Below are positions 3,252-59,159 of a DNA stretch of 64,000 nucleotides, piece by piece; the stretch's first letter is position 1; the number at the start of each line of letters is the position of its first letter. The stretch is taken from NCBI GenBank assembly GCA_012719395.1, contig JAAYAL010000025.1, positions 8,558-72,557 on the forward strand. Reading direction: 5' to 3'. The DNA comes from Gaiellales bacterium (lineage in GTDB: Bacteria > Actinomycetota > Thermoleophilia > RBG-16-64-13). The position numbers and the translations under genes were made by a program. The notes beneath the pieces were generated by a model. It was given only the letters and a program-made list of their open reading frames with translations, searched no databases and had not been told where the DNA came from.

Positions 3252-4675
3252 GCGCGGGCCTGGACACCGGCTACCAGGCGGTGATGGCGCGCTCCACCCA
3301 GATCCTGCGCAACGCCTCCGGCCTGGACTACGATGACTTCCGCCGTGGCCGCCTTTGCTTCGATTACGAGGGCCTGATGGCTGCCACGGGCTACTCCCTG
3401 GAGCAGGTGGCGGACGTACAGCGGCGCTGCAAGGTGGGAGGGACACCGCTGCTGGAGCTCTCCAACCTTACCCGCCTGGCGCGCAGCCTGGCGCCGGCCG
3501 GCATGGGCGCCCGTATCCTGGTCAAGGACGAGGCGGCCAACGCCTCCGGCAGCTTCAAGGCCCGCCGGGCCAGCCTCTCCGTGCAGGAGTCCAAGCGAGC
3601 CGGCTACCCCGGCGTCATCGCTGCCACTTCAGGCAACTACGGGGCGGCGGTGGCGGCCATGTGCGCCATGCAGGGCCAGTGTTGCATCATCGTGCAGGAG
3701 ACCTTCGACTCGCGGGGGGTGGGGCAGCCGGAGATCGTCGAGAAGGGCCGCGCCTGCGAGGCCTACGGGGCCGAGGTATGGCAGATGACGGTGGGCCCGG
3801 AGTTGTTCTACATGCACCTCCGCCTGCTGGAGGAGAGCGGCTACTTCAACGCCTCGCTGTACACGCCCTTCTCCGTGTCCGGCATTGAGACGCTGGGCTG
3901 GGAGGTGGCGCAGGAGGTGCGGGGGCTCACCGGCCGGCCGCCGGCCGCGGTGGTGGTGACCCACGCCGGCGGCGGCAACGTCACCGGCACTGCCCGCGGC
4001 CTGCGCAAGGCGGGCGCGGGGGAGACTCAGGTCATCGCCGCCAGCGTCGACCTCAGCGGCCTGCATATGGCCAGCGACACCCAGTTCAACCGCAAGAGCT
4101 TCACCACCGGCCACACCGGGTTCGGCATGCCCTTCTTCACCAACCCCGACCGGGCGGACGTGCCCCACAACGCCGCCCGTCCCCTGCGCTACGCCCACCG
4201 CTACGTCACCGTCAACCAGGGCGCCGTCTTCTACACTACGCAGCTGCTGGCCGTCCTGGAGGGGCTGGAGCGCGGCCCGGCCGGCAATACCTCGCTCTGC
4301 GCCGCCTTCAAGCTGGCCCAGGAGATGCCGGCGGATGAGGTCATCGTGGTGCAGGAGACGGAGTACACCGGCGCCGGCAAGCACCCCACTGCCCAACTCA
4401 CCTTCGCTCGCGACAACGGCGTGCGCGTAGTACGCGGCCCGGCCACGCTCGACAAGCCCGGGGAGGTCATCGCCATCCCCGAGTCGCCGGAGCAGGTGGC
4501 CTACGCCGAGATCGACCTGCAGCGGGTGCGGGCCTCCTACCTGCGTGGCCGGTTGGCGGCGGCGGAGGTAGGGGACTATCGTCAACTGAGTGCGGCTGAA
4601 CTAGAGTACCTTGCCGAGGAAACCAACCTCACCCGGGAGAGCTGCCTGGCGTTGTTGAAGAGAGCCGCCGAATGA
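3248..4675 (+). CDS. ortB: 2-amino-4-ketopentanoate thiolase beta subunit-like, PLP-dependent (OrtB family, Trp-synthase-beta fold)
   Basis: 475 aa. Lys motif 'GSFKARRA', 'TSGNYGAAVA', Gly-rich 'HAGGGNVTG'. ATG overlaps the ortA stop (ATGA). Confidence 0.65.
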   Translation: MSAGLDTGYQAVMARSTQILRNASGLDYDDFRRGRLCFDYEGLMAATGYSLEQVADVQRRCKVGGTPLLELSNLTRLARSLAPAGMGARILVKDEAANASGSFKARRASLSVQESKRAGYPGVIAATSGNYGAAVAAMCAMQGQCCIIVQETFDSRGVGQPEIVEKGRACEAYGAEVWQMTVGPELFYMHLRLLEESGYFNASLYTPFSVSGIETLGWEVAQEVRGLTGRPPAAVVVTHAGGGNVTGTARGLRKAGAGETQVIAASVDLSGLHMASDTQFNRKSFTTGHTGFGMPFFTNPDRADVPHNAARPLRYAHRYVTVNQGAVFYTTQLLAVLEGLERGPAGNTSLCAAFKLAQEMPADEVIVVQETEYTGAGKHPTAQLTFARDNGVRVVRGPATLDKPGEVIAIPESPEQVAYAEIDLQRVRASYLRGRLAAAEVGDYRQLSAAELEYLAEETNLTRESCLALLKRAAE

Positions 4676-6547: not shown

Positions 6548-6905
6548 GGGGGCGACAAGGTTTCGACGGGGCTCAGGTCTGAGTGAGGGTAGCGGGTCGA
6601 GATCCCGGCCGTTCTCGTTAAACAGGCTGGAAACAAACAACTGGCAAGCAAGAACTTGCTCTGGCCGCTTAGCATATAGGCAGCCTGTCGCGCCTCTAGC
6701 TCTCGCCGGAGAGGGCCGCGGCATCATTTAGGCGGGATCACCTGCGTCGAGTGCCGCCGGCCTCGCAGGGAAACCAAGGTGGCTGGTCAGAGGCACCCGG
6801 CTTCCGCGGGGGCCCGAGGCGAGAAATAAAAGCGGAAGCTACACCCGTACGAAGCCTTCTCCAGACGAGTTTCGGACGCGGGTTCAATTCCCGCCGCCTC
6901 CACCA
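6548..6905 (+). ncRNA. ssrA: tmRNA (ssrA)
   Basis: 5' GGGGGCGACAAGGTTTCGACGGGG and 3' GGACGCGGGTTCAATTCCCGCCGCCTCCACCA tRNA-like ends. Internal tag ORF ...GKQELALAA followed by TAG (6670-6672). Confidence 0.85.
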
Positions 6906-6917
6906 TAAGTCTCATAC

Positions 6918-6947
6918 AAAAGCCCTGCTAATCCGGGGCTTTTCTTC
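6918..6947 (+). terminator. rho-independent terminator of ssrA
   Basis: aaaagccc-N10-gggctttt followed by tcttct. Confidence 0.6.
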
Positions 6948-7342
6948 TGGGAATGAGACAACAGGTTCGTAACACACTTGCGCTTTTGCCTTGTTGCAGC
7001 CAGAAATGCAGGTTTGGGGTGTGCACATTGGGGAGACGGGCGTGTGGAAGGGCGATTCTCATAGGATGAGACGGGAGGTGCCCCCGGGGAATGTTGAGGT
7101 TCCCCGGGGGCGAAGGTGCTATTGGTCAGCGACCACAGGGGTGCGCCTCACGGCAGTGGTCTTCTGTCTCGCAGAGAGCACCCAGGTGGGGGAACAAGAT
7201 TGACGAGAATCCGCTTGAAGAACACCCGGTTGGACTGCTTCTTGATGTGGTCGGGCGCTGTCTTGAGAAGTGGCCGGGTGAAATTGGACAGCCTCGTAGG
7301 TGATACTGCCCCCGGGCAGAACACCAAGGAGGAATACCAGCA

Positions 7343-7534
7343 ATGCCGAGAAGACCGAGGCGCAACCATGCACCGGCGTTCAAGGCCAAGGTGGCGCTGG
7401 AAGCCATCAAGGGCGAAGAGCCGTTCATTCAGATCGCTGAACGCTTCGACGTACATCCCAACCAGATCACCACGTGGAAGCGGCGACTTCTCGACGGCGC
7501 TGAGAGTCCTACCCGGCCGTTGGAACAGCCCTGA
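7343..7534 (+). mobile_element. IS3-family transposase OrfA N-terminal remnant (truncated)
   Basis: 'MPRRPRRNHAPAFKAKVALEAIKGEEPFIQIAERFDVHPNQITTWKRRLLDG' matches IS3/IS911 OrfA HTH. Ends prematurely, with no orfB. Confidence 0.6.
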
Positions 7535-7589
7535 CGGCAGTGGGGATTGGCAGGGGTCACACCCCGAAGAGGCCTCTGATGCGCTGATC

Positions 7590-7952
7590 GTGTATCGCAC
7601 ATTTACCGTGGAGCCGTCTGAGATTCTCAAGGGCAAACCCGAATTTGGCACCCCAGTGCAATTCTTCGTGGAGGGCGGCATCGTGGGCGAGGTCAGTGGC
7701 CCGGTGGACGAAGGCGACAAGGTCCTGGTGTTTGGTCAGTATGATCAGACCCTGTATGGGGGTACGTGGCCAAAGGACGCATACCACAGCACACATGGTG
7801 AGTGGTCCATATTCAAGGAAACCGAAACCGGACTGACTAATCTCTTCGTGCTAGGTGGTTTTGAAAGGCAGATGGCCGACAAGGGTTTTGATCGAGTCAC
7901 ACTGGACGATGTGAGGGCAGAGGTGGCTCAGCCCAGCATTACACAGGAGTAA
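7590..7952 (+). CDS. hypothetical protein (orphan; GTG start uncertain)
   Basis: Protein-like composition in the 3' half of ORF 7116..7952. GC about 55%. No recognizable domain. Confidence 0.3.
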   Translation: MYRTFTVEPSEILKGKPEFGTPVQFFVEGGIVGEVSGPVDEGDKVLVFGQYDQTLYGGTWPKDAYHSTHGEWSIFKETETGLTNLFVLGGFERQMADKGFDRVTLDDVRAEVAQPSITQE

Positions 7953-8303
7953 ATCCTCAGGTGATGGATGGGCCCGAGCACTGCGAGGCCCAGTTGTGGG
8001 TGGAATGGAGGCCAACCGGGATTTGAGAGGAGGATTACGAACTGCGGACAACAGAATGGATTCCGCTGAGTCCGAAACCGTGTGGGGCATCCTTTCTGTC
8101 GCTCGGGGAGCCCGGCGGCTGAAGATCTCCGCACTGTGACGCCGTACTGGGTTCACATCTTGCCGAGTGGTAGCGGCAACGTGCCTGCATATGACGATTG
8201 CAATGCTACGTTTGAATGTTGATCATTGCTAAACCGCACATTACAGCCTGTATCCTAGGCCTCATCATTCCAATTCGGATTTGCCTCAAATGCGTACAAA
8301 CGC

Positions 8304-8339
8304 AAAAGCCCATCAGACAACCAAATCTGATGGGCTTTT
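8304..8339. terminator. perfect 14-bp inverted repeat hairpin (bidirectional terminator candidate)
   Basis: aaaagcccatcaga-caaccaaa-tctgatgggctttt, immediately 3' of the minus-strand phosphoesterase gene. Confidence 0.6.
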
Positions 8340-8394
8340 GCTTTGCGACGGTGTCTAAGGGAACGAATAGAGAATGGTTGGTGGCATCCACCGT

Positions 8395-9705
8395 TCAATT
8401 GCTGACGCCTTGGCCGATATCGATCAGGGCACCATCCTCTGCAAAGCTGTAGAGCGTCGCCGTATCCTTTTCGTCCGCAGTAATGACGGTGAACGTGCGG
8501 GCAGCGTCCGGATAGTTGGTATTGTTATCTATCCAAGTTCCCGTGTTGATGTAGTAGGCTCCGTCGCCGATGTTCCGTAATGCCGGTACATGAGTGTGAC
8601 CAAACACGATGATGTCCACAGTTTCATCCGGATTGTCAATATACTGCGCCTTGGCTTGTGCAAAGAAGTAGTCCCAATTCAGCGTGCCGGATACCGCCTC
8701 GATAAAGGTGTTGTGAACCTTGACGTTATTGAGCTTCTGCCGCGCGTCCCATGTGCGCTGAATATGTTGGAACAACACGGGCGCCGATATTGTTCCGTCC
8801 GCCTGCTCGGCCGGGAAGAAATCGAGGTACGTGTAAGCGTCGTCAAAACCCGCGATATGCATATCGAAAATCTTCTCATCAAGACTTTCGTTGGGCGTCA
8901 CTCGCTCTGAAATGCTCTTGAGAACCGAGTAATAGATGTAAGCGCCGTACTGATCCGTATCCGTGTGATCCGGCACATTTGCAACCGCCGGCAGCTCCTT
9001 TGCCACTTCTGGATGGCCTTGCAGCACCCATGTGGCGGCATATCGGGCATAAAAATACCCGGCCGGAAGAATCGTATCGTCGTTGCCGCACAGTTTCGCG
9101 TTGGAAACCGTATCCGGCGCGGAAAACACATCGTAACGATGACCGTGCTCGATCACAATTTCGTTTCTGTCGCCCGTATAGTAGGCGCCAAGTCCTTTGG
9201 CGTCCGTTGCCTGCTCAATGTTCGGGATAGCTTGCTGCAGGATTTCCTTTTCCAGCGTCATATCGTGGTTGCCAATTACGTAGACAAGTTTGATGCCGCT
9301 GTCTGCAACGCTGTTCATCTCGTCGATAACGACCTGGTTATTCGCGATCACTTGCCTGTAAAACTGTTCCTCATCGGTATAGGACGTATAAGAGACGGGC
9401 AAAAACCATGCGTCCAAGAAATCACCCGCAATTACCAGTTCGCGCACATCCTTCGTATTCTGCAACCTCTTCAAGAACTCAACAAGCAGCGCACGGTTGG
9501 TCACTGTTTCACTATAGCTGTCAGCAATGCCCAAATGGAGGTCGCTTATAACGACGATCCTATTTCTTTCAGCGCCTGCTTCCCACAAGGGCGTCGCCGC
9601 CTCCGGCGTACTGGTTTGCGCCGCACATCCTGTGGCGAGCAGCGCGAGAGAGACTACTATGCTGCATGCCAGCATGAGAGACAGAAGCTTTTGTTTCATG
9701 TTCAC
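8395..9705 (-). CDS. calcineurin-like metallophosphoesterase lipoprotein
   Basis: Signal peptide plus lipobox 'LLATGC'. 'GDFLDAW', 'GNHD', 'GHRYD', 'GHTH' phosphoesterase motifs. GC about 48% versus about 68% for the flanks. Confidence 0.75.
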   Translation of the reverse strand: MNMKQKLLSLMLACSIVVSLALLATGCAAQTSTPEAATPLWEAGAERNRIVVISDLHLGIADSYSETVTNRALLVEFLKRLQNTKDVRELVIAGDFLDAWFLPVSYTSYTDEEQFYRQVIANNQVVIDEMNSVADSGIKLVYVIGNHDMTLEKEILQQAIPNIEQATDAKGLGAYYTGDRNEIVIEHGHRYDVFSAPDTVSNAKLCGNDDTILPAGYFYARYAATWVLQGHPEVAKELPAVANVPDHTDTDQYGAYIYYSVLKSISERVTPNESLDEKIFDMHIAGFDDAYTYLDFFPAEQADGTISAPVLFQHIQRTWDARQKLNNVKVHNTFIEAVSGTLNWDYFFAQAKAQYIDNPDETVDIIVFGHTHVPALRNIGDGAYYINTGTWIDNNTNYPDAARTFTVITADEKDTATLYSFAEDGALIDIGQGVSN

Positions 9706-10872
9706 GTGCTCCTAGTATGCCTTGGATGGTTTAGCTGCGCTTTTCGGCCACTCACATTCGCCCGCATTCCAAGCGCGGGGCTTGTGCAAATGAAGACAAG
9801 CGTACCGCATGCCGGGAGGTGTGTTCCGCGCTGGCGTGCGGGGCAAGGGCGTGTACGTTCCGGGCACGGCGTCCTTTCTAGCATATGGCGTCGATGGACA
9901 ATTGGTTGGCGCCCAAGGATACCCGGATGATTTCTATCCCGGCTTGCTGTTCGCGCAAGCGGGGAATAGCTTGCCGGTCGACACACGGAAGCGGGCAACT
10001 CCACCTCAGGGTGTTGGCCTCAAGCTTGGATCGCCGAAGTAGATCCGGCCGGCGGAAGCGCCAAATAGGTTGCTCTTGTATGAGCCGCACCGCCGGCCAC
10101 GACAGCGGCTCGCGATTGGATGGCGGAGTCTGATTCCGTGAGTCTGCTCTGCCGCGTTCCTTCCCGGCAACGTATCGCTGCCGCGCTCTGCTACGGCGCC
10201 GACTCCTCGGTTGCCGATGTGGCGAGGGCCATGGGCTCTCGGAGGGTTCCGTCAACAGTCATTTGCATCGAGCGCGCCCCGCTCTGCCCGGACTCCTGGA
10301 GGAGACGTGATGGGCACCAGACAAACCGACGAGCGGATAGGGAACGTCTACAGTCAGAACGAGGCTCCCGCCGATGTGGAGGCGTTCCCGTCACAGCTTG
10401 CGCTTCGTGGCTTTGTCGGGCTCGCCGTCCTGTTGGAGATGCAAGCCCGCCGAGCGCACGAGGTGCCGCTGCCCTGGCCCCATTGGCTCCGAGGGCTGGG
10501 GGGCAGCGTTCGAGGGGGGTGTTCCTCGCGAGTGCCTTCGCATGCGCTTTGTTGGGAAATGGGGCCCCGGCATTGGCGGACCTGCTCGGCAACATATCGA
10601 CTGAGTCGGGCCCAGATGGTTACCCTCGTCATTCGCGCGGGCACGCTCCACCACTTACCCGACGTGGGAGCCCCTCCAGATGGTTTCGTGTCAACCTTGG
10701 GCAACTTCGATCCGGCTCACGCGGCAGCCGAGTGGGCGCAAGGCACCCAAAGGCTGTTGTGGACGGAGGAGGCCATCAACTGCCGCCTGCCCCGCACCAT
10801 GTGTGCGACACTTCTGCCTCGTATGTCGCACCGTGGATAGAGGTACTGCATCGTGCAACCGGGAGGAAGGCT

Positions 10873-20779: not shown

Positions 20780-21377
20780 CATTGCTCCGCGGGCCGGTGG
20801 GCCGGCGCGCGAGGGCGTGGGAAGCGGGTGGAGTTGGAAGCGCCTGCGTCGCCTGCTGACCCCGGTCCGCCTACCCGCTGCTCCACCCATCCCGGGGGCG
20901 CTGGCTCTGCTCGTGCTCCGTTTTCCCCTGTTGGTTCCTGTTCGGCTGCGCTGGCGGACGGCAGCGTCGGGGCTGGGTTTGGCGGTGGCGACGCTGTGCG
21001 AGGGGCCGGTGGAGCAGGGGGCGGGCAGATCCGTAGGTGGGGCTTTGGAGGGCATTGGCGAAGCCCAGGGCCGCGCCTTGCAGGAAGCTCTGGGCTACGG
21101 TGCCACGCTACTGGAGTGTGCCCGGGCCGTGGCTCTTGCCAACCGCCTCTATCATATTCAGGCCCTGGCCGTGCCCGTCTCGCCGCAGGAGGCGCAGGTG
21201 GTCACGCTGGGCTGTCCCTGGTCGAGGCAGTCGTGGTGGGGCAAGCGTCCTTGCGGCGCGTTCTCCCGGTACGAGGCGGGGCTGGTGCGGGGATTGAACA
21301 ACCAAGTGTCGCTCACCTACTCGGCCAAGCGCACGCGGGGAGACGATCGGTGCGTGGGCGTCTACCGGTGGCGATAA
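20751..21377 (+). CDS. V4R (4-vinyl reductase-like) domain protein; start uncertain
   Basis: C-terminal 'VTLGCPWSRQSWWGKRPCGAFSRYEAGLVRGLNNQVSLTYSAKRTRGDDRCVGVYRW' fits the V4R Cys/Gly pattern. Overlaps the pilT 3' end. Confidence 0.4.
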   Translation: MASRCRCVSSIAPRAGGPAREGVGSGWSWKRLRRLLTPVRLPAAPPIPGALALLVLRFPLLVPVRLRWRTAASGLGLAVATLCEGPVEQGAGRSVGGALEGIGEAQGRALQEALGYGATLLECARAVALANRLYHIQALAVPVSPQEAQVVTLGCPWSRQSWWGKRPCGAFSRYEAGLVRGLNNQVSLTYSAKRTRGDDRCVGVYRWR

Positions 21378-21390
21378 GGGGCTGCGCCGC

Positions 21391-21753
21391 TCACGACTTG
21401 CTGCGCCGCTTGTCCCCTCCGATGATGATGTTGACCAGCCAAGTGATGACGGAGATGAGCAGGGCGGCCAGGACGGCCCACCAGAAGCCGTCGATCTGCA
21501 TGTGGTCGCCCAGTATCCAATCCAGGATCTGCAGGATCAAGCCGTTGAGCACCAAGGTGAACAGCCCAAGGGTGAGGATGTTGATGGGGAGGGTGACCAG
21601 CACCAGTATTGGACGCAGGAAGGTATTGAGGATGCCCAGCAGGAGCGCTGCCAGCACTGCGATCCAGATGCTGTCCAGTTGAAAGGCGGGCAGGATCTTG
21701 GTCACGGCCAGAATGGCGAGCGTGTTGACCGCCCATCTCACCAGCAATCTCAT
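21391..21753 (-). CDS. DUF360 / phage_holin_4_2 family membrane protein (YvlD-like)
   Basis: Three to four TM helices, 'LLGILNTFLRPILVLVTLPINILTLGLF' family signature. Confidence 0.6.
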   Translation of the reverse strand: MRLLVRWAVNTLAILAVTKILPAFQLDSIWIAVLAALLLGILNTFLRPILVLVTLPINILTLGLFTLVLNGLILQILDWILGDHMQIDGFWWAVLAALLISVITWLVNIIIGGDKRRSKS

Positions 21754-21807
21754 GCCGCCTCCCTGTGTGGTCAACTGTCGCCCGCGTGCCGACGGAAGGA
21801 ACGTCTC

Positions 21808-22782
21808 TTACGCCTCAGTATACGTCTGCAGAAGCTCTCTGGCGGCCTGTAGCAGGGCGGCCGTTTCTTCGGCCGGCTCCAGGATAACGCTTTGCCCCAG
21901 GTCGGCCAGCACCTCTCCCAACAGCCACTCGCGGTCGAAGTAGGGGAGGTGCACCAGCAACTGCCCGTCCGGCGCCCGGCTGAAGGGCATGCCCTGCTCT
22001 TCGAGGAGAGGGGCCCGCTCCGCTGGCTGTTGGAGGAGGGCCCAGTGAGGCGTGGGACCGAACGCTCTCGAGGCTTCCGTGGAGGGCGAACGGGTCATCT
22101 CCACCCGGGGTGTGAAGGTGGTGGGGCGTAGGGTGGCGACTTTGATTCGATCCACCCGGAAGGTACGGTGGCTTTCGCTCCGCAGGCAGTAAGCCTCCAG
22201 GTACCAGGCTCCCCCGATATTGCGCAGACCGTGGGGTTCCACCTCCCGCCAGGCCAGTTCATTGCGCGAAGGGGAGAAGTACTGGATGCCGGTGACCCTG
22301 CGTCCGGGGACGGCCTGTGCCAGCGTCTCCAGCACGTCGGGCGAGGCGGGCGTCAAGGACTCGGCGGCGGCGAGAGGGACGGCGGAGGGGCTGTCCAGGC
22401 AGGAGGCCAGCTTTGTCCGCAGCGCACCGGCCTCACCCGGTGGCAGCGGCAGTACATCTCCCACCAGGTCCAGTGCCAGGATGACCGAGCGGACCAGCGT
22501 GGGGGAGAGCCGGGCGGGATACGCCATGGCGTCGGCGCCCACGTCGCTTTCCACCACCAGATCGTCACAGTCGCGGTAGGCGTAGAGGAGGTAGGTGCCT
22601 CCTCCGAAGTTGACAAGGTTGAGCAGCGCCACGTCCTCTTCTATTTCGGAGACGGTCAGGCCCAGTGACGCCGTGATGTCTGCCAGCGGAATGCGGGGAG
22701 TGCTCTGGGCAAGCAGGAAGGCCAGAAGGCCCAGGGCCCTGACCACCCTCTCCGGCCCCACTCCCGGCGTTGGCCTGCTCAC
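21808..22782 (-). CDS. HTH-WYL-WCX transcriptional regulator (PafC-like)
   Basis: HTH 'ERVVRALGLLAFLL', WYL 'AWYLEAYCLRSESHRTFRVDRI'. GTG start overlaps the upstream gene's stop (GTGA). Confidence 0.7.
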   Translation of the reverse strand: MSRPTPGVGPERVVRALGLLAFLLAQSTPRIPLADITASLGLTVSEIEEDVALLNLVNFGGGTYLLYAYRDCDDLVVESDVGADAMAYPARLSPTLVRSVILALDLVGDVLPLPPGEAGALRTKLASCLDSPSAVPLAAAESLTPASPDVLETLAQAVPGRRVTGIQYFSPSRNELAWREVEPHGLRNIGGAWYLEAYCLRSESHRTFRVDRIKVATLRPTTFTPRVEMTRSPSTEASRAFGPTPHWALLQQPAERAPLLEEQGMPFSRAPDGQLLVHLPYFDREWLLGEVLADLGQSVILEPAEETAALLQAARELLQTYTEA

Positions 22783-23801
22783 GTCCTGGCTCCGTGAGAA
22801 TGGAGACGGATGATGGCCTGGAGTCCCTGACGGATGGCGGCGCGCAGCTCTTCCGGCTGCTGAAGCACCACCACGGTGTGGTGGCGCAGGACCCACCCGA
22901 CGAGGGGCTCAGCGGCGGCAAAAGGGAAGGTGTAGGTGTACCCGCCGGCGTCGGTGCTCTCCCGTTGCACGAACCGGCCATAGGTGCGGTCCACCCACCA
23001 GGCGAAGCGGCGGTCGATCCAGACGGTTGCCTCTCCCTCCACGGGTCCGAGCAACCAAGGGGGGCGGGCGGCGTAGTCGGCGGGGTCGTAGTCCGTGGGT
23101 GGCTCGAAGTCGGCGGGTTTCTTCGTCAGGAAACCCACCCGCCCGTTGATGCGATCCACCCGGAACATGCGTTGCGCCTGCCGCTGGTGATCCCACCCCG
23201 CGACGTACCAATGGCCGCTGATGAGGAAGAGGCCATAGGGGTTGACGCGGCGGGTGGCAGCCTGGCTCTCGGCCGCGCGGCGATAGGAGAACTCCACCGA
23301 TTTGCGGCGGGTGACGGCACTGTCCAGCTTGGCCAGCCCGGCTCGCACCTGCGGAGGGTAGTGATTGCCCACATGGATACCGGAGACACGGAGGTCCTGT
23401 TTGACGGGGGCGGGCCCGCCTTCGGCCAGTCGCAGCGCGTTCAGCGCCAGGCGCAGGGGCTGCTCGTATGGGAAGCCCCCCTGCAGCGCCAGAAGCGCGG
23501 CCGCCAGAGCCTGCACCTCGCCTGCGCCCAGGTGAAGCTGCGGGAGCGCGTAGTTCTCTTTGGGCAGGAAGTAGGCCTCCGTGTCCTCCCAGCGCGGATC
23601 AGACATCTTCACAATATGGAAGCCCAGCCGGCCCAGGCCTTGGCGATCATCGTAGAAGCGCTTCTTGAAGGCCTCGTCCGTCATGGCCCCGTAGCCCTCC
23701 ACGTTCTCCTGTACCTCCAACGAGGAAACGGGCCTGCCCGAGCCCAGCAGGAAGGAGAGGAGCGACAACTGGCGCAGGCTCTTCTCTTGGTCTTTGGACA
23801 T
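22779..23801 (-). CDS. HTH-WYL-WCX transcriptional regulator (PafB-like)
   Basis: HTH 'LRQLSLLSFLL', WYL 'GHWYVAGWDHQRQAQRMFRVDRI'. Confidence 0.7.
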   Translation of the reverse strand: MSKDQEKSLRQLSLLSFLLGSGRPVSSLEVQENVEGYGAMTDEAFKKRFYDDRQGLGRLGFHIVKMSDPRWEDTEAYFLPKENYALPQLHLGAGEVQALAAALLALQGGFPYEQPLRLALNALRLAEGGPAPVKQDLRVSGIHVGNHYPPQVRAGLAKLDSAVTRRKSVEFSYRRAAESQAATRRVNPYGLFLISGHWYVAGWDHQRQAQRMFRVDRINGRVGFLTKKPADFEPPTDYDPADYAARPPWLLGPVEGEATVWIDRRFAWWVDRTYGRFVQRESTDAGGYTYTFPFAAAEPLVGWVLRHHTVVVLQQPEELRAAIRQGLQAIIRLHSHGART

Positions 23802-23864
23802 GCTCCAAGGTTAGCGCACAAACGAGGCAAGGTTTCCGTCTGCGGCGGTGGATAGAATAGCGAC

Positions 23865-26798
23865 ATGGAATGGGTGAGCGGCGTGGGCGGAGCGGGGCGC
23901 GGTGCGCGTGGGTGTGAGCCGCGGGCGGCTGCCGGCGGGCGCGGGGAGATCCTGCCGGACGGGATCGCGCGCTGGTGGGGAGAGCACCGCGGTCGGGCAC
24001 CCTTCTTTCTGGTTCCTTCCCGGGAGGATGCCACGGAACTCACGCTGGCCCTGGCGTCGCGGGACGGCCCGCTGCTGGGTGCCGCCGTGGCGGGAACCTT
24101 CGATGATCTGGCTTCGCTGTTGCTGGGCGGTCGCGTGCGGCCCCTGGGTGAGGTGGCGCGGGAGGCAGTGGTGCGCTGGGCGGCGGCCCCCACCCTGGCT
24201 GCGCCGGACGGTGTGTTGGGCAGGCTGGGAAGCTTTCCCGCGGGGCTCGCCGGCCTGCTGGAGGAGATGGAGGCATCTGGTCTGGGAGGAGAGCAGATCG
24301 GCCGTGTCCTGGCCGCCTGGGAGGCCCTCGCCCCCGAGTCTGACGTGCGGCGTTTGGCGCAGGAGTTGCGCGTCATCTACCAGAGGTATGCGATGCTTTG
24401 TGCCGACCGCTCGTGGCACGGGACGGCGTCAACCCTGCGGGCGGCGGCCCTTCGTGCCCAGGGTGCGGTGGAGGCCGAGGAGCCCGAGCGGGAGGTAGCC
24501 TCAATCCACGCTGCTGCGCCGCTGATCCACGCTCCCGGCCCGGCCGTCTGGGCCCGTCCCATCCTGTGCGTAGGTTTCCTTACCTTCACACCAGTGCAGC
24601 GCCTGCTCTTGGATGCGCTGAGCCGGCGCACCACGGTCACACTGGAGCCGTCTTGGACGGGGTCTCCGAACGGGGGCCAGGCGCCCGTTCGCTTGCTGCA
24701 GTCCGCGGGCCGGCGCGGGGAGATGGAAACGGTCGCGGCCGAGGTGGTGGAACTGATGCGCGCCGGTATGGAAGCGGCGGACATCGCGCTGGTGGCGCGC
24801 AGCGCGGGGCCTTGGCGCAAGGTGGCCAAGGAGGTGTTCTCCGTCTATGGAATCCCGTTGAGAGTGGATGCCTCCTTCAGGTTCCGGGAGACGGGCCTGG
24901 GTAGTGCCTTGTTGTCGGCCGTGGGGGCCATGTTGAGGGGAGAGACCCGGGCGCTCATTGGGTGGTTCCGTGGCCGCTATTCCCAGGCGCATCCTCAGGC
25001 ACTGAGGGGTCGGGAGCTGGAGCGCTGGCGTGGGATTGTGTCCTGGCCGGCGGATCCTGCCGCGCGCGGGGTATTGGCGGAGCTGTTTCCCCAGGATATG
25101 GCTCTGCTGCAGGGCTGCGTGGAGACTGACGGCGGGGGCGCACCCCGTCTCCGCCCGGCAGGGGTGGTGGATCTGGCTCGGAGCATGGTCGCTGTGTCCG
25201 TGTGTCGGCTCCCCCTGATGCATCCCATGGTGGCGGAAGACGCAAGAGCGTTGCAGGCGTTGGAGTCGGGGCTGGCGGAGGTAGAAGAGACGGACGGTGG
25301 AGGGATGGACTCGGCCGGAGGAGGCGCCGCGTGGACCGGCGCCGCCGCCCTGCTGGACATCCTGGCCGACGCCGCCCTGTGGCCTGCACCCCATGTCGCC
25401 GGTGGGGTCACGCTGCAGAGCGCCGGCAGGCTTCGACTTCGCCCCTACCGCGCCGTCTTCGTGCTGGGCCTGGTGGATCAGGAGTTTCCCGCTGGGGACC
25501 AGAGCTCCGGTTTGCTGCCCACATCGCTTCGTAGGGAGTGCAACCGGTTGGGCGGCGAGGCGTTGTTTGAGGAGCCGGCGGAGGACCTGGACGCCAGGCT
25601 TTTCCAGTTGGCCGTCTCGCACGGCGCCGAGTGCGTCTACCTCTCTCAGCGCGTGAGCGATGACAACGGCAACGCCTTGTCTCCCTCCCCCTTCCTTCTC
25701 TCGGTTGACGCGGAGGGGGGAGGCCTGTCGCCCTGGAGGCAGCGGACTCTGGCGGATGTGGTGCACCCGGTACCTCTGGCGCCGAGCCATCACGAGTTCC
25801 TACGGTCCTGTGCGGCCGGGAACCTCCTTCCCGAAGGTGAGAAGAACATCTCCCGGTTGGTGGCGGCCGCTCGGAGTCTCCATTCTCCCGCCTGTCTGGG
25901 GGACGCACGCGTGATTGAGGTGCTCTCATCTCGTTCCACCTTCGCGGCCGGCGAGATTGAAGCCTATGCGCGCTGCCCTTTCGCATGGTTCCTGCAGAGC
26001 CAGGTGGGACTTCGTGCGGCGGAGGAAGACGCCGGGCCCCAGGATCTGGGGCTGCTGGTGCATGCAGTCATGGCCCGCCTCTACACGGAGCTGGGCAAGC
26101 TGGAGCTGCTGCCCTTGACCCAGGCTTCCAGCGCAGCCGCACTCGATTGCGCGGAGCGGGTCCTCAGCGAGGTCGCTGCCGGCAGGGCCGCCGTTGCTTC
26201 CCCGGCCTCCCGAGGCCTGCTGCTGGCCCAGGCCCGCTATCGCGTACGCGAGCACCTGGAGCGGGAGGCGGCGGCGGGAGGAGCCATGATGACGTGCGCA
26301 GTCGAGCTTTCGCTGCCCGCGCAGGGTGTGGAGTTGGGCGATGGCCTCGCGGTCCGCGGGAGGGTGGATCGGGTGGATGTCTCTCCGTCCGGTGACGGTT
26401 TTGCCGTGATGGACTACAAGACCGGCTCGTACGTGCCTCGCAAGGCATGGGCGGAGGAGGGCATGCTGCAGGTGGCGCTGTACCTGCTGGCGTTGAGCGT
26501 ATTGTGGCCGCAGAGGCGGCCGCTTGGTGGGGGTTACCTGTTCCTGGGGCGGGGTCAAGGCAAGGGTCTGTTTGTGGAAGCGTCGGCTCCGCTGGCGGGA
26601 GAAGGAGCACCGTGGGTCGCGGTACCGGAGGAAGAGCTGAGGCGGCAACTCGAGGATTGCCGTTTGGCGGCCTTGGGAGTCGCGGAGGGGATACGGTCCG
26701 GTCGGGTGGGCGCGGATCTCGCGAGTACCTGCCCACGCTACTGCGTGTTCGGCCCGGTATGCCGCAGCCGGAGGGGCTCCCCTTGGGGGTGGTCATGA
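23865..26798 (+). CDS. AddB/AdnA-like helicase-nuclease subunit (no Walker A; RecB-family nuclease with Fe-S Cys motif)
   Basis: C-terminal 'MDYKTG' nuclease motif, Cys at 'ARCPFAWF' plus 'CPRYCVFGPVC'. No GxxGxGKT. Start ATG 23865 or a nearby GTG. Confidence 0.7.
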   Translation: MEWVSGVGGAGRGARGCEPRAAAGGRGEILPDGIARWWGEHRGRAPFFLVPSREDATELTLALASRDGPLLGAAVAGTFDDLASLLLGGRVRPLGEVAREAVVRWAAAPTLAAPDGVLGRLGSFPAGLAGLLEEMEASGLGGEQIGRVLAAWEALAPESDVRRLAQELRVIYQRYAMLCADRSWHGTASTLRAAALRAQGAVEAEEPEREVASIHAAAPLIHAPGPAVWARPILCVGFLTFTPVQRLLLDALSRRTTVTLEPSWTGSPNGGQAPVRLLQSAGRRGEMETVAAEVVELMRAGMEAADIALVARSAGPWRKVAKEVFSVYGIPLRVDASFRFRETGLGSALLSAVGAMLRGETRALIGWFRGRYSQAHPQALRGRELERWRGIVSWPADPAARGVLAELFPQDMALLQGCVETDGGGAPRLRPAGVVDLARSMVAVSVCRLPLMHPMVAEDARALQALESGLAEVEETDGGGMDSAGGGAAWTGAAALLDILADAALWPAPHVAGGVTLQSAGRLRLRPYRAVFVLGLVDQEFPAGDQSSGLLPTSLRRECNRLGGEALFEEPAEDLDARLFQLAVSHGAECVYLSQRVSDDNGNALSPSPFLLSVDAEGGGLSPWRQRTLADVVHPVPLAPSHHEFLRSCAAGNLLPEGEKNISRLVAAARSLHSPACLGDARVIEVLSSRSTFAAGEIEAYARCPFAWFLQSQVGLRAAEEDAGPQDLGLLVHAVMARLYTELGKLELLPLTQASSAAALDCAERVLSEVAAGRAAVASPASRGLLLAQARYRVREHLEREAAAGGAMMTCAVELSLPAQGVELGDGLAVRGRVDRVDVSPSGDGFAVMDYKTGSYVPRKAWAEEGMLQVALYLLALSVLWPQRRPLGGGYLFLGRGQGKGLFVEASAPLAGEGAPWVAVPEEELRRQLEDCRLAALGVAEGIRSGRVGADLASTCPRYCVFGPVCRSRRGSPWGWS

Positions 26799-29700
26799 GC
26801 CTGACCCCCGACCAGCAGCGGGCTGTGTGTGCGGAAGAGAAGGTACTGTTTGTCTCCGCCGGAGCCGGGAGCGGCAAGACCAAGGTGCTGGTGGAGCGCT
26901 ACGTGCGGTGCGTGGCGGAACTGGGTGTTCCCACGGGGCAGGCGGCGGCAGTGACGTTCACCCGCAAGGCGGCGGGCGAGCTGCGTCACCGGATCCGTAG
27001 CAGATTCGTGGAGATGGGCAGGTCTGACCTCGCGCAGGGCATGGATCGGGCGCCGATCGGCACCATCCACAGCCTCTGCAGTCGCATCCTTCGCAGCGAG
27101 GGCCTCATCATGGGCCTTCACCCCGGCTTTCGCGTGCTGGAGGAAGACGAGGCGGAGATCCTGATACGCGATTCGTTGACGGCGGCCCGGGAAGAGGTTG
27201 CAGCACAGGCCGCCGCGGCAGAGCTCGAGGTGCTGGCCCGTCACCGCACCATGCTGGAAGAGCAGGTGCTGGCGGCCTTCCGGTCAATGCGCGCCGCCGG
27301 CCAACGAGTTCCGCGGCTTGGCGTGCCACCTTGCGGTGACGCCGGCCGGGCCAGGGCCGTCCTTGAGGCTGCCCTGGAGGACGTGTGTACTCTCTCGCCT
27401 GCTGAGCTCCCCAACGCCACGGCAGCCGGCAACTACGCCAAGGCCGGGGAGTGCCTGCAGTGGCTCGCCACCATCCCCTCCGTGCATCCCGCCACCATCT
27501 GCCGGGCGGGGGCCTACGTGCCCGCCATGAGGGGTGACAAGGTCAAGGCCCTCTTCGGTGAGCAGCGGGACGCGCTGGTCGCCTGGTGCCGTGTCATGGG
27601 CGAGGAGTACCTGGCGCGGGTGGCGGTCGTTGCATCTACGCTTCTGGACCGCTTCGTTGGCATCTACGCCGCGCTCAAGGCAGAAAGGGAGGCGCTGGAT
27701 TTCGCGGATCTGGAGATCGAGGCCATCTCGTTGCTCGAGAGCTCGGGACGACGTTCCCGGGAGCCCTTGTACCTGCTGGTAGACGAATTCCAGGACACAA
27801 ACCTGCTGCAGTGCCGGCTGTTCGATTTGCTGGCACCGGTGTCGTTCACATCGGTGGGCGATTACTTCCAGAGCATCTACTCCTTCCGTGGGGCGGACTG
27901 TACCGTCTTCCAGCGGCGGCGGGATCAGTTGCGGGCCGGGGAGGGCGAAGGCTTGGACTTCGGTCGCCACCGGGTGGGCGGCAGCGGCACGTCCGCCTGC
28001 ATCTCGCTGGCCACCAGTTTTCGCACCGCCGAGCCTGTCCTGACTGCGATCAACCGCCTATTTGGTCACGAAGCTTTCTTTGGCGTCTCGTACGTGCCGC
28101 TGGAGCCTTGCAGCACCCGCCACGTGGACCGTGAGCGGGGGCGACTGGATCCGGCCGTGGAGTTGCACGTGGTAGACGTGCCCCGCTCTTCGGACCTGGA
28201 CCGGGGTGAGGGAGGTGAGCTCGCAGAGGGCGCCGAGGGGGCGATGATGGGGCCCATAGGAGGATTCGCCGATGAGGGGGAGGTGGCGCAGGCGCCCTTC
28301 CCGGAGGCCTTGTACGTTGGCGCCCGCGTGAAATGCCTGGTGGAGGAGGAGGGTTGGCGCCCGGGGCAGATTGTGATTCTGCTCCGCAAGACGGTGCGGT
28401 CAGGAGAATACGCGCAGGCGCTCCAACGGCTGGGTATCGGCTCCTACGTGGTGGGCGGCAGGGGTTACTTCTCACAACTGGAAGTGACCGATGTCATGTC
28501 GTTCCTCACTCTTCTCCTCGATCCTCACGATGATCTGGCTCTGGCCACGGCGCTGCGTTCGCCCCTGGCCCGGGTGAGTGACGATGCCCTCTGGCTTCTG
28601 GGTCGTGTGCGCAGAGAGCAAGGCCTCATGTCGTTGTGGGAGGCCGTGCGCGCGCCAGACAGAGAGTTGCTTGCCACCCAGGACGAAAGGCAGCTTGAGT
28701 GCCTGTGCACAGCGGTGAGGGATCTGTGCGGCCGGGTGGGTGGCCCGGGGATGTCCGGCCTGATAGACGAGGCGGTCTCCTCGCTTGACTACGATTTGTC
28801 GCTTCTCTCCGCCCCGGAGGGGCGGCGTCGTTTCGCCAACGTGCGCAAATTGATGGAACTGGCGGACGTGTTCGAGGAAATGGAGGGGCCGGACCTGGCC
28901 GGTTTCTTGGCCCATGTGAGGCGGCGCGGGGGCTTGGGGGACAAAGAGGGTGAAGCCACGGTGTTGGCTGAGGATGAGGATGTCGTTCGGATCATGAGCG
29001 TCCACCAAGCCAAGGGGTTGGAGTTCCCGGTGGTGATCCATGCCGGGCTGGGGGACATGGTGCGAGAGGACAACCGGGGGCTTCTCGTGGGTGCCGAGGG
29101 TGAGGTGGCCTTGAGGATGACCCTTCCCGGCAAGTTCAACGCCCTGAAGAGCCACATCACGCTGGGACCCTACGAGCAACTGCTCCAACAAGAGAGAGAG
29201 CAAGTGCGCATGGAGGAGGCCCGCATATGCTACGTGGCGGCCACCAGGGCGCAGGAACGTCTCATCCTGGTGGGAGCGCGGGCGCCGCTTCTCCGCCAAG
29301 CGGAGAAGCGGCCGCTCACCTGGTTCATGAGCGCGGTGGGTTTGGGCGCGGAGGCCGACGTGCCTGTCGCGTCCCGTCCTTGGGACGACGTGGATCTGGT
29401 GTGCAACCCAAGCGTCCGTTCAGCTTGTTCCACTGCACCGGACGTCACCGGGCGGGAGAAGGCCGCGGGGGTGGTTCTGTCTCCGGTGGCACCGCCGGTG
29501 TTCCCTGCGCTGACGCGGGCGCCCTCGACCTCTGCGGTGAGTTTCTCCGCGCTGAAACTCTTCCACCTCTGTCCGCGGCGCTACTACGTGGAGCGCGTGC
29601 TCGGCTTCAGGGCCGAGACCGCCCTCAATCGGCCGGGCGACTCTCTCCCAGCGGTGGCGAGTGCGGCCAACGGCGCCCAAGAGGGGGAGTGGTATCCTCG

Positions 29701-30349
29701 CGGCCTCCGGGAGCCGGACGAGGAGGGGGAGCCCCAACGGCTGGAAATGGGCATCGTGGTCCACAAGATGCTGGAACTGGCGCCTCTGGGCGCTCACATA
29801 CCCGCTGAAGGCCTCCTGTGCGAACTCTACGGCGCCGCCACCAGCATGCTAGGCGTGTCGTTGCCCCAGCGGGCGGGTGAGGAGTGCCGGGCTCTGTGCG
29901 CCGCCTACTGGAGGTCGCCCCTGGCCCGGCTGGGCGGCGATACTCTCGGCCGAGAGGTCTCCTTTGCTTTTGCAGTCGGCGCCAGATTGGTGAAAGGCGT
30001 GATGGACCGTGTGGAAGTGTCGCGGGAGACCTGGCACATCATAGACTACAAGACCAACCTTCTCTGCGGTCGGTCGGCCCTGCAGGCATCTGCTGCCTAC
30101 CACCTACAGGTTGTCATCTACGGGTTGCTGGGGCTGCGGCGCGGTGCGGACCGAGTATACGTTCATCTGCTGTTTCTGGAGGCTCCGGAGGAGCCGGTCT
30201 CGGTGGCGTACGGGCCGGGGGATATGGCGCAGTTGGAGGAGCGACTGCGTGCCGAGGTGGTGGCTCTGGAGACCAGCCGCTTCGAACGCGCCGCGGCGGA
30301 ATGCCCTGCCTGTCCGCACAACTGGATGTGCGGGGTCACGCGGCATTGA
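26795..30349 (+). CDS. AddA/AdnB-like UvrD-family helicase with C-terminal RecB-family nuclease
   Basis: ATG overlaps the upstream stop (ATGA). Walker A 'AGAGSGKTKVL', UvrD motifs, 'IIDYKTN'. Cys pattern 'HLCP...CPACPHNWMC' (C-x2-C-x5-C). Confidence 0.8.
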   Translation: MSLTPDQQRAVCAEEKVLFVSAGAGSGKTKVLVERYVRCVAELGVPTGQAAAVTFTRKAAGELRHRIRSRFVEMGRSDLAQGMDRAPIGTIHSLCSRILRSEGLIMGLHPGFRVLEEDEAEILIRDSLTAAREEVAAQAAAAELEVLARHRTMLEEQVLAAFRSMRAAGQRVPRLGVPPCGDAGRARAVLEAALEDVCTLSPAELPNATAAGNYAKAGECLQWLATIPSVHPATICRAGAYVPAMRGDKVKALFGEQRDALVAWCRVMGEEYLARVAVVASTLLDRFVGIYAALKAEREALDFADLEIEAISLLESSGRRSREPLYLLVDEFQDTNLLQCRLFDLLAPVSFTSVGDYFQSIYSFRGADCTVFQRRRDQLRAGEGEGLDFGRHRVGGSGTSACISLATSFRTAEPVLTAINRLFGHEAFFGVSYVPLEPCSTRHVDRERGRLDPAVELHVVDVPRSSDLDRGEGGELAEGAEGAMMGPIGGFADEGEVAQAPFPEALYVGARVKCLVEEEGWRPGQIVILLRKTVRSGEYAQALQRLGIGSYVVGGRGYFSQLEVTDVMSFLTLLLDPHDDLALATALRSPLARVSDDALWLLGRVRREQGLMSLWEAVRAPDRELLATQDERQLECLCTAVRDLCGRVGGPGMSGLIDEAVSSLDYDLSLLSAPEGRRRFANVRKLMELADVFEEMEGPDLAGFLAHVRRRGGLGDKEGEATVLAEDEDVVRIMSVHQAKGLEFPVVIHAGLGDMVREDNRGLLVGAEGEVALRMTLPGKFNALKSHITLGPYEQLLQQEREQVRMEEARICYVAATRAQERLILVGARAPLLRQAEKRPLTWFMSAVGLGAEADVPVASRPWDDVDLVCNPSVRSACSTAPDVTGREKAAGVVLSPVAPPVFPALTRAPSTSAVSFSALKLFHLCPRRYYVERVLGFRAETALNRPGDSLPAVASAANGAQEGEWYPRGLREPDEEGEPQRLEMGIVVHKMLELAPLGAHIPAEGLLCELYGAATSMLGVSLPQRAGEECRALCAAYWRSPLARLGGDTLGREVSFAFAVGARLVKGVMDRVEVSRETWHIIDYKTNLLCGRSALQASAAYHLQVVIYGLLGLRRGADRVYVHLLFLEAPEEPVSVAYGPGDMAQLEERLRAEVVALETSRFERAAAECPACPHNWMCGVTRH

Positions 30350-58907: not shown

Positions 58908-59159
58908 ATGGCACACAAGAAAGGTGGCGGGAGCTCACGGAACGGGCGGGATTCCAACGCGCAGCGCCTGGGATGCAAGGCGTTCGGTGGGCAGGTTGTG
59001 ACCGCCGGCTCCATCTTGGTGCGGCAGCGCGGCACCCGGTTCCGTCCCGGTCTGAACGTGGGCATCGGCTCGGATGACACGCTGTTTGCGAAGATCGATG
59101 GGCTCGTGGTGTACTCTACGGGCAGAAAAGGGCGCCGCATCAGTATCGTCGCGGAGTAG
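58908..59159 (+). CDS. rpmA: 50S ribosomal protein L27
   Basis: '[22 protein letters not shown]'. Confidence 0.9.

Follow-up and report, generated by a model that had tools for sequence, protein, structure and literature searches.

The best-matching described relative of the regulators considered here is PafBC of mycobacteria, a pair of helix-turn-helix (HTH)-WYL-WCX paralogues that is constitutively present, is activated by single-stranded DNA (ssDNA) and switches on approximately 150 genes, including those for both end-resection machines, AdnAB and RecBCD (PMC8223512). PafBC promoters have no -35 element; the PafB HTH recognises a GTC at about -26 and SigA the -10, a mechanism known as 'sigma adaptation', and the published in vivo motif, which was used here, is tGTCgg(N10)tA(N3)T (PMC8635444). 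In mycobacteria, adnA serves as a reporter that is exclusively PafBC-dependent and RecA-independent. The present analysis concerns a chromosomal stretch of 64 kb with a GC content of about 66 % from a Gaiellales bacterium (contig JAAYAL010000025.1, positions 8,558 to 72,557; hereafter the window, whose coordinates are used unless another locus is named), in which genes for a PafB-like and a PafC-like protein lie divergently beside genes for an AddAB-like helicase-nuclease. The locus is also present in several anaerobic-digester assemblies. We put at roughly 70 % the probability that the products of the pair, as a PafB/PafC-type heterodimer from a sister clade of canonical PafBC, activate the divergent addB-addA end-resection operon. 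To our knowledge, all work on PafBC to date has concerned the form that is linked to the proteasome genes.

The pafB-like gene (22779-23801, minus strand; 340 aa, ATG start; Pfam WYL 1.6e-20, WCX 1.3e-08) is followed by the pafC-like gene (21808-22782, minus strand; 324 aa, GTG start; Pfam WYL 7.9e-20, WCX 6.1e-05). The HTH_PafC match in the PafC-like protein is weak (1.3e-05, below the Pfam cut-off), and the HTH of the PafB-like protein can be recognised from its predicted fold and from full-length alignment to PafB of known structure. The two genes share a 4 nt GTGA stop/start overlap (22779-22782, minus strand; tcac on the plus strand), read as translational coupling, and a Shine-Dalgarno-like GGAG (22790-22793, minus strand, within TCTCACGGAGCCAGGACGTG) lies 7 nt ahead of the GTG. 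Independent gene calls on other assemblies reproduced the two products and the overlap. The ATG of the pafB-like gene is fixed by conservation of the N-terminus MxKDDEKxLRQLSL in 20 homologues, and the gap to the ATG of the AddB-like gene (23865) is exactly 63 bp (23802-23864). A first-pass annotation made from the sequence had described two consecutive HTH-WYL-WCX genes of 340 and 324 aa, joined by a GTGA overlap and starting 63 bp from the AddB-like gene, and the open reading frames (ORFs), Pfam domains and sequence agree with that description throughout. Directly 3' of the pafC-like gene is a gene for a small membrane protein of the Phage_holin_4_2 family (21391-21774, minus strand; approximately 120 aa), which is found in this place in the genome of the window and in the relatives with 86 % and 61 % identity described below (L001, L089 and L090).

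Relatives were collected by a scan in which each species was represented by a single genome and the query was a PafB-like alignment. With the four window proteins as queries, tblastn split the best 80 of the 411 loci cleanly into 24 that are linked to addAB and 56 of canonical type. The 24 linked loci are from metagenome-assembled genomes (MAGs) that bear the label Thermoleophilia, Gaiellales or Actinomycetota. Two additional metagenomic relatives, with 86 % and 61 % identity to the window, were used for close comparison. Among proteins of solved structure, the best relative of the PafB-like protein is Mycobacterium smegmatis PafB (7p5x_AY/9fnd_X, 1.8e-20 over residues 10-322, versus 5e-09 for PafC), and that of the PafC-like protein is M. 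smegmatis PafC (7p5x_AX, 1.9e-21 over residues 12-322, versus 3e-05 for PafB). The top solved fold for the AlphaFold model of the PafB-like protein (mean predicted local distance difference test score 77) was also PafB (9fnd_X, 1.4e-17), followed in order by fused PafBC, PafC, DriD, CapW and BrxR. In a neighbour-joining distance tree of 121 PafB-type and PafC-type sequences from the fetched loci, built without bootstrap, the B-type sequences fall in one clade and the C-type sequences in another, the window proteins lie in the matching branches, and within both clades the addAB-linked and canonical sequences make up separate monophyletic groups. In an exhaustive search of representative proteins, 108 clusters passed E<=1e-30 and 1541 passed E<=1e-10, and fused forms of about 690 aa account for a good number of the top matches. 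The best solved matches and the tree, subunit by subunit, and the fold of the PafB-like protein thus agree with the resemblance to mycobacterial pafBC that had been noted at the outset, and by these comparisons the proteins are assigned as specifically PafB-like and PafC-like, in a sister clade to the canonical proteasome-linked PafBC.

Binding of ssDNA in M. smegmatis needs R181, Y196, R204, R208, R211 and R214 of PafB and R201 and R204 of PafC (PMC11804915). All six of the PafB residues are present in the PafB-like protein, as R184, Y199, R207, R211, R214 and R217, and are invariant or nearly so across the linked clade. The equivalents of R201 and R204 in the PafC-like protein are R209 and R212.

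The order addA<-addB, short gap, pafB->pafC was found at all 24 of the loci in which the PafB-like protein shares 38-48 % identity with that of the window, and the same divergent arrangement is present in the 86 % and 61 % relatives. No gene for PafA, PrcA or PrcB was detected by tblastn in the 64 kb window, nor within 10 kb on either side in the 24 linked loci. Among the 56 loci of lower identity (26-35 %), prcB-prcA-pafA lie a few kb upstream in 51, which is the textbook arrangement, and four of the other five have little upstream sequence. Such linkage is typical of PafBC but is not needed for its mechanism. Hence, the regulator pair is not linked to Pup-proteasome genes, at least locally, in line with the earlier remark that none stands beside it. 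A search for PafA homologues with the protein from L031 as query gave 8000 matches and was uninformative, the 120 listed all being close relatives of the query with no Thermoleophilia or Gaiellales name among them, and a literature search, equally uninformative, found no paper that pairs Thermoleophilia with pupylation.

The AddB-like nuclease subunit (23865-26798, plus strand; 977 aa; PD-(D/E)XK nuclease 8.1e-35) has Bacillus subtilis AddB as its sole solved relative (3u44_B), at a weak 5.9e-08, and its match to addB_Gpos (NCBIfam) is likewise weak and far below the equivalog cut-off. Residues C704, C956, C960 and C966 make up a C...C-x3-C-x5-C pattern resembling that of an iron staple. In the relatives, AddB carries a Walker-A-like GP(A/P)N(S/A)GK(L/M)G motif (GPANSGK) 10-30 residues from its start; the N-terminus of the window protein (23865-23990) reads GVGGAGRGARG...AAAGGRGE at the place of the P-loop, which appears to be degenerate in this genome. 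The addA-like gene (26759-30349, plus strand; 1196 aa as called), which overlaps the addB-like gene by 40 nt, encodes a UvrD-type helicase-nuclease (UvrD-helicase 1.5e-51, UvrD_C and PDDEXK_1) with the Walker A sequence SAGAGSGKT. Of the solved structures, B. subtilis AddA comes closest to it (3u44_A, 1.5e-54; mycobacterial AdnB, 1e-22), and the protein scores 264.8 bits with addA_Gpos against an NCBIfam cut-off of 707.65. Its C-terminus, CPACPHNWMC (residues 1182-1191), is of the form CxxCx5C and hints at a second iron-sulphur site in the nuclease domain.

When the intergenic regions of the window and the 24 linked loci were aligned, only two blocks were conserved across the 25, one on the addB side and one on the pafB side, and in a comparison of the window with the 86 % and 61 % relatives the same two blocks are the sole intergenic sequence that is invariant. 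The addB-side block has the consensus tC[CT]GTCCG-N10-TAcAAT with a fixed spacing, the G, T and C of the core each carrying about 2 bits. In the window it consists of the -26-type PafBC box CGTCTG (23837-23842, plus strand; GTC core at 23838-23840), separated by the fixed N10 from a -10 hexamer TAGAAT (23853-23858, plus strand); in the 86 % and 61 % relatives the box is CGTCCG and TGTCCG, respectively. An element upstream of addB had been described in the first-pass annotation as only loosely resembling the RecA-NDp box, and what was found is a conserved GTC box at the PafBC spacing. The same annotation was in error in placing TAGAAT at 23844-23849, some 15 nt from the ATG; the true distance from the end of the hexamer to the ATG (23865) is 6 nt. 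Apart from this position and distance its observation of the locus is correct, and its suggestion that the addB transcript is short or leaderless is strengthened by the shorter distance. In the relatives, 4-11 nt separate the end of TAcAAT from the addB start. No conserved -35 was present across the 25 addB-side regions, and no canonical sigma-70 promoter or terminator was found in 21300-24300.

Enrichment of the box was assessed over the 130 nt that precede addB in each of the 25 loci, with the background rate of the same loci as the expectation. GTC-N12-TAnnnT was found in 22 of the 25 (0.2 expected) and the stricter GTC[CT]G-N10-TAnnnT in 20 (0.02 expected). The one match to YGTCYG-N10-TAnnnT in the window alone is not significant (0.52 expected; at least one match in 43 of 100 shuffles), and the case for the box thus depends on the 20-22 of the 25 loci that have it in this position. 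At a threshold of at least 13 bits, a matrix recovered 23 of the 25 addB promoters, with a single further match in 514 kb, a result that is partly circular since these sites had served to build the matrix; in 919 kb of canonical loci it gave two matches. The LexA/Cheo box GAAC-N4-GTTC was absent from all 25 intergenic regions when up to one mismatch was allowed, which speaks against LexA control.

The pafB-side block, (t)GTGCGC-TAnnCT, is of a different kind. In the window, a -10 hexamer TAACCT (23808-23813, minus strand) lies 6 nt before the pafB-like ATG, with the transcription start predicted at 23801, and directly upstream of the hexamer is the element GTGCGC (23814-23819, minus strand; consensus tgTGCGcTAgTCTT over the 25 loci), at about -18 to -13. 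TAnnCT ends 6-7 nt before the pafB-like start in 25 of 25 loci and is invariant in the 86 % and 61 % relatives. A -10 so near the ATG leaves no room for a Shine-Dalgarno sequence, and this transcript, too, looks leaderless. GTGCGC was found at the same place in L007-L030, L073, L089 and L090, and the only exact match to TGCGCTANNCT in the window is the one at the pafB-side element. It fits neither an extended -10 (TGn) nor a PafBC box. A GTC box at the PafBC spacing was seen on the pafB side in none of the 25 loci except L008, and autoregulation is therefore not supported. In L008 (9973-9994), GTCCG-N11-TACCCT lies 6 nt before the pafB-like ATG and could reflect either autoregulation or chance. 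The two divergent promoters are 64 bp apart in the window, and 27 to about 96 nt apart among the loci. The 61 % relative L089 has a 32 bp insertion between the two promoter blocks (at about 3930-3965), with the near-repeat CACTGTTCGC...CACTGTTCGC; both blocks are invariant despite the insertion, which indicates that the spacer is free to vary.

Synteny at 24 of 24 loci and the conserved PafBC-type box at addB together support the regulator-target relation to the adjacent helicase-nuclease that had been thought plausible from the window alone. The promoter layout argues for activation over repression, and the parallel with mycobacterial PafBC suggests how this might proceed. The regulator genes would be expressed, probably constitutively, from their own leaderless, -35-less promoter GTGCGC-TAACCT, and their products would presumably form a heterodimer, the WYL domains of which would bind ssDNA arising from damage. 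In its activated state, the dimer would be positioned with the HTH of the PafB-like subunit at the GTC box, about -26 in the addB promoter (CGTCTG-N10-TAGAAT), and would act in concert with a housekeeping sigma factor bound at the -10 to make up for the missing -35 contact by sigma adaptation. The housekeeping holoenzyme would thus be recruited and a leaderless addBA transcript switched on. Control of adnAB by mycobacterial PafBC is the counterpart of the control of addBA proposed here.

A number of findings weigh against this interpretation. The box in the window, CGTCTG, has a T where the clade has a C. Of the residues that canonical PafB uses in its recognition helix, the base-reading R50 is replaced by Asp or Gly in the linked clade (D51 in the window), and R46 corresponds to K47 in the window protein, though it is R in most of the clade; there is also an invariant new Arg, R48, and K52 is replaced by R53. 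Overall, the helix reads AFx[RK]RF[YF][DG]DR in the linked clade versus AFxRMFERDK in canonical proteins. In PafC, the wing PGDLID, which includes the SigA-contacting D62 (D/E62), is replaced by LVNxGGGTY--LxY with a deletion of two residues, and the linked clade has no acidic residue at the aligned D/E62 position, both as judged from the alignment only; the published contacts of the PafC HTH to SigA domain 4 are mostly main-chain. The WCX aromatics W250, Y254 and Y255 of PafC are not kept in the PafC-like protein. Since GTC is still kept in the DNA while R46 and R50 are altered, its readout must be arranged differently, and the combination of a clade-specific helix with GTCCG rather than GTCgg is compatible with a joint shift of the two partners. 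Taken together, the altered helix, box, PafC wing and WCX domain, the AddAB-type target and the lack of linkage to pafA describe a sister-clade variant of PafBC and not a plain orthologue.

Two further difficulties concern the reach of the box. The first-pass annotation had proposed a genome search for the motif, and a scan with the matrix and regular expressions, which covered the window and flanks totalling about 0.5 Mb, bore out its presence at the addB promoters and revealed no further regulon promoter. Besides the addB sites, there was the pafB-side box of L008, one likely chance match in L014 and one site before an ORF for a peptidoglycan-binding protein in L021. There was thus no second box-carrying promoter in the flanks, with one such promoter, that of addB, per locus; a large regulon is unproven as a result, and flanks of this size are too small to tell local from global control. 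The other difficulty comes from the more distant PafB-like homologues P0023 and P0026 (36-37 % identity, some fused or extended), which lie divergently not beside AddAB genes but beside genes for Y-family (IMS/DinB-type) polymerases (L088 6490-10644 and L087 6186-10038), where no GTC-N12-TAnnnT box was seen. These homologues nevertheless fit the theme of PafBC-like regulators encoded beside damage-response genes. In L087, the segment 8311-8897 looks like a palindromic assembly chimera.

The divergence of the recognition helix and PafC wing from those of canonical PafBC, together with the count of about five WYL proteins per genome in Actinobacteria (PMC6789036), could be taken to mean that the synteny reflects only co-inheritance or co-expression, that the GTC box is served by a pafA-linked PafBC encoded elsewhere, and that the adjacent pair is a paralogue with another target or ligand. 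This appears improbable, however, as strict adjacency is kept down to 40 % protein identity, the 56 canonical loci within the best 80 of 411 include none from the 24 MAGs with a linked pair, and the difference between GTCCG and the mycobacterial GTCgg is systematic and runs parallel to the clade-specific recognition helix. Alternatively, the pair might act on the 63 bp region as a repressor of the BrxR/CapW kind, holding addBA, and perhaps itself, off until released by ssDNA. Repression of neighbouring genes is indeed known for several WYL regulators, the fold matches include CapW and BrxR, and with the window promoters 64 bp apart a bound protein could occlude either. Mutual occlusion is nonetheless not conserved, given spacings of 27 to about 96 nt among the loci, and a non-palindromic box at -26 with a fixed N10 to the -10 and no -35 is the layout of an activator-dependent promoter. 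In addition, PafB and PafC are nearer relatives than CapW or BrxR, and the regulator is a pair of two paralogues and not a homodimer, all of which makes repression quite improbable.

A connection to phage defence had also been raised, on the grounds that WYL regulators control phage-defence islands. Such regulators do co-localize with defence islands (PMC9122601), and the four genes could then be a WYL-regulated anti-phage module with the nuclease-helicase as effector. The AddA-like protein does match PADLOC models for GajB (UvrD-type), but these matches amount to generic UvrD-helicase similarity, the WYL proteins match only generic models and the AddB-like protein has no PADLOC match. Among solved structures the nuclease-helicase is nearest to AddA and AddB of B. 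subtilis, the locus is surrounded by housekeeping genes, its GC content is unremarkable, the box is non-palindromic and the arrangement is conserved vertically in 24 genomes. Hence, the rationale from phage defence is not supported and a defence module is highly improbable.

If addBA activation by the pair is accepted, a broader scheme can be drawn, though it is rather unlikely to hold. In this clade, PafBC and AddAB might constitute a self-contained circuit for double-strand breaks, independent of the Pup-proteasome, in which ssDNA made by AddAB activates the pair and the pair induces addBA, giving positive feedback from a bidirectional, doubly leaderless region of 63 bp. Such a circuit might be the ancestral state of PafBC, from a time when the regulator had not yet been recruited to the pafA locus and its regulon had not yet expanded to about 150 genes, and GTC might be read via R48/R53 instead of R46/R50.

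The wider neighbourhood is one of housekeeping genes, among them an extracytoplasmic function (ECF) sigma/anti-sigma pair, cell-wall hydrolases, a tRNA cluster, tig-clpP-clpX-lon-valS-folC, mreBCD-PBP2-rodA, RNase E/G, obg and proB, and the GC content at the regulator/addBA locus is unremarkable. Elsewhere in the window, a tmRNA gene (6548-6905; tag GKQELALAA) is followed directly downstream by approximately 3 kb of low GC content (6900-9800; 0.50-0.59 versus about 0.66) that includes a metallophosphoesterase ORF (8395-9705, minus strand). No integrase was seen in this stretch, which may be the remnant of an island at the tmRNA gene. ARAGORN called a tRNA-Trp (cca) at 58980-59060, in the interval that separates the RNase E/G gene from obg and near a small ORF (58908-59159); the call was not in the Rfam scan at gathering threshold.

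The findings extend the known PafBC system and overturn no current understanding. This clade keeps the regulator and a recognisable PafBC-type promoter with no local linkage to pafA, and the two regulator genes with the 63 bp region represent a minimal system for sigma adaptation outside mycobacteria. As a natural recognition variant, with one Arg lost, another gained and GTCgg changed to GTCCG, it could show how the -26 element is read by the HTH. The position of the regulator beside an enzyme that makes ssDNA also bears on the source of the activating ssDNA, a question raised by the authors of the work on DriD, who considered resection by AddAB its likely source.

Among described systems, DriD of Caulobacter crescentus is an SOS-independent WYL activator that is likewise activated by ssDNA and shares the HTH-WYL-WCX fold (1e-12 to 1e-13), but it is a homodimer with another operator, comes from another phylum and is only 18-19 % identical in structural alignment. 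SiwR of M. smegmatis (PMC10693628) is, as proposed for the pair, an ssDNA-binding WYL activator encoded beside its damage-response targets, in that case DinB-superfamily genes. It differs in being the homodimeric product of a single gene that binds a 19 bp imperfect palindrome between the -35 and -10, whereas the window locus has two paralogues and a box at -26 that is not palindromic. BrxR and CapW, the repressors of BREX and CBASS systems, share the fold and are also encoded beside the genes they regulate, but they are homodimeric and have palindromic operators and a defence context, none of which was seen at the window locus.

The enzyme resembles AddAB of B. subtilis (3U44/4CEH) in having addB followed by addA, an AddA with a UvrD-type motor and RecB-type nuclease, and an AddB with a PD-(D/E)XK nuclease and four Cys in an iron-staple-like arrangement. 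Points of difference are that the window proteins score far below the NCBIfam equivalog cut-offs, the AddB-like protein lacks GPANSGK and the AddA-like protein has the C-terminal CxxCx5C. They are nevertheless nearer to AddAB than to mycobacterial AdnAB (6PPJ), the type that is under PafBC control. The regulators are closest to mycobacterial PafBC (7P5X, 9FND; fused PafBC of Arthrobacter aurescens, 6SJ9), with which they share tandem HTH-WYL-WCX paralogues in the order B then C, the Arg and Tyr residues of the WYL domain that bind ssDNA, a GTC-box target promoter without a -35, and an end-resection helicase-nuclease as the presumed target, this being adnAB in mycobacteria. They are, however, only about 28-30 % identical to it and fall in a separate sister clade with no adjacent pafA/prcBA, the pair lies divergently beside its presumed target, the box of the clade is yGTCCG versus tGTCgg, R50 is lost and R48 gained, and the PafC wing is without PGDLID.

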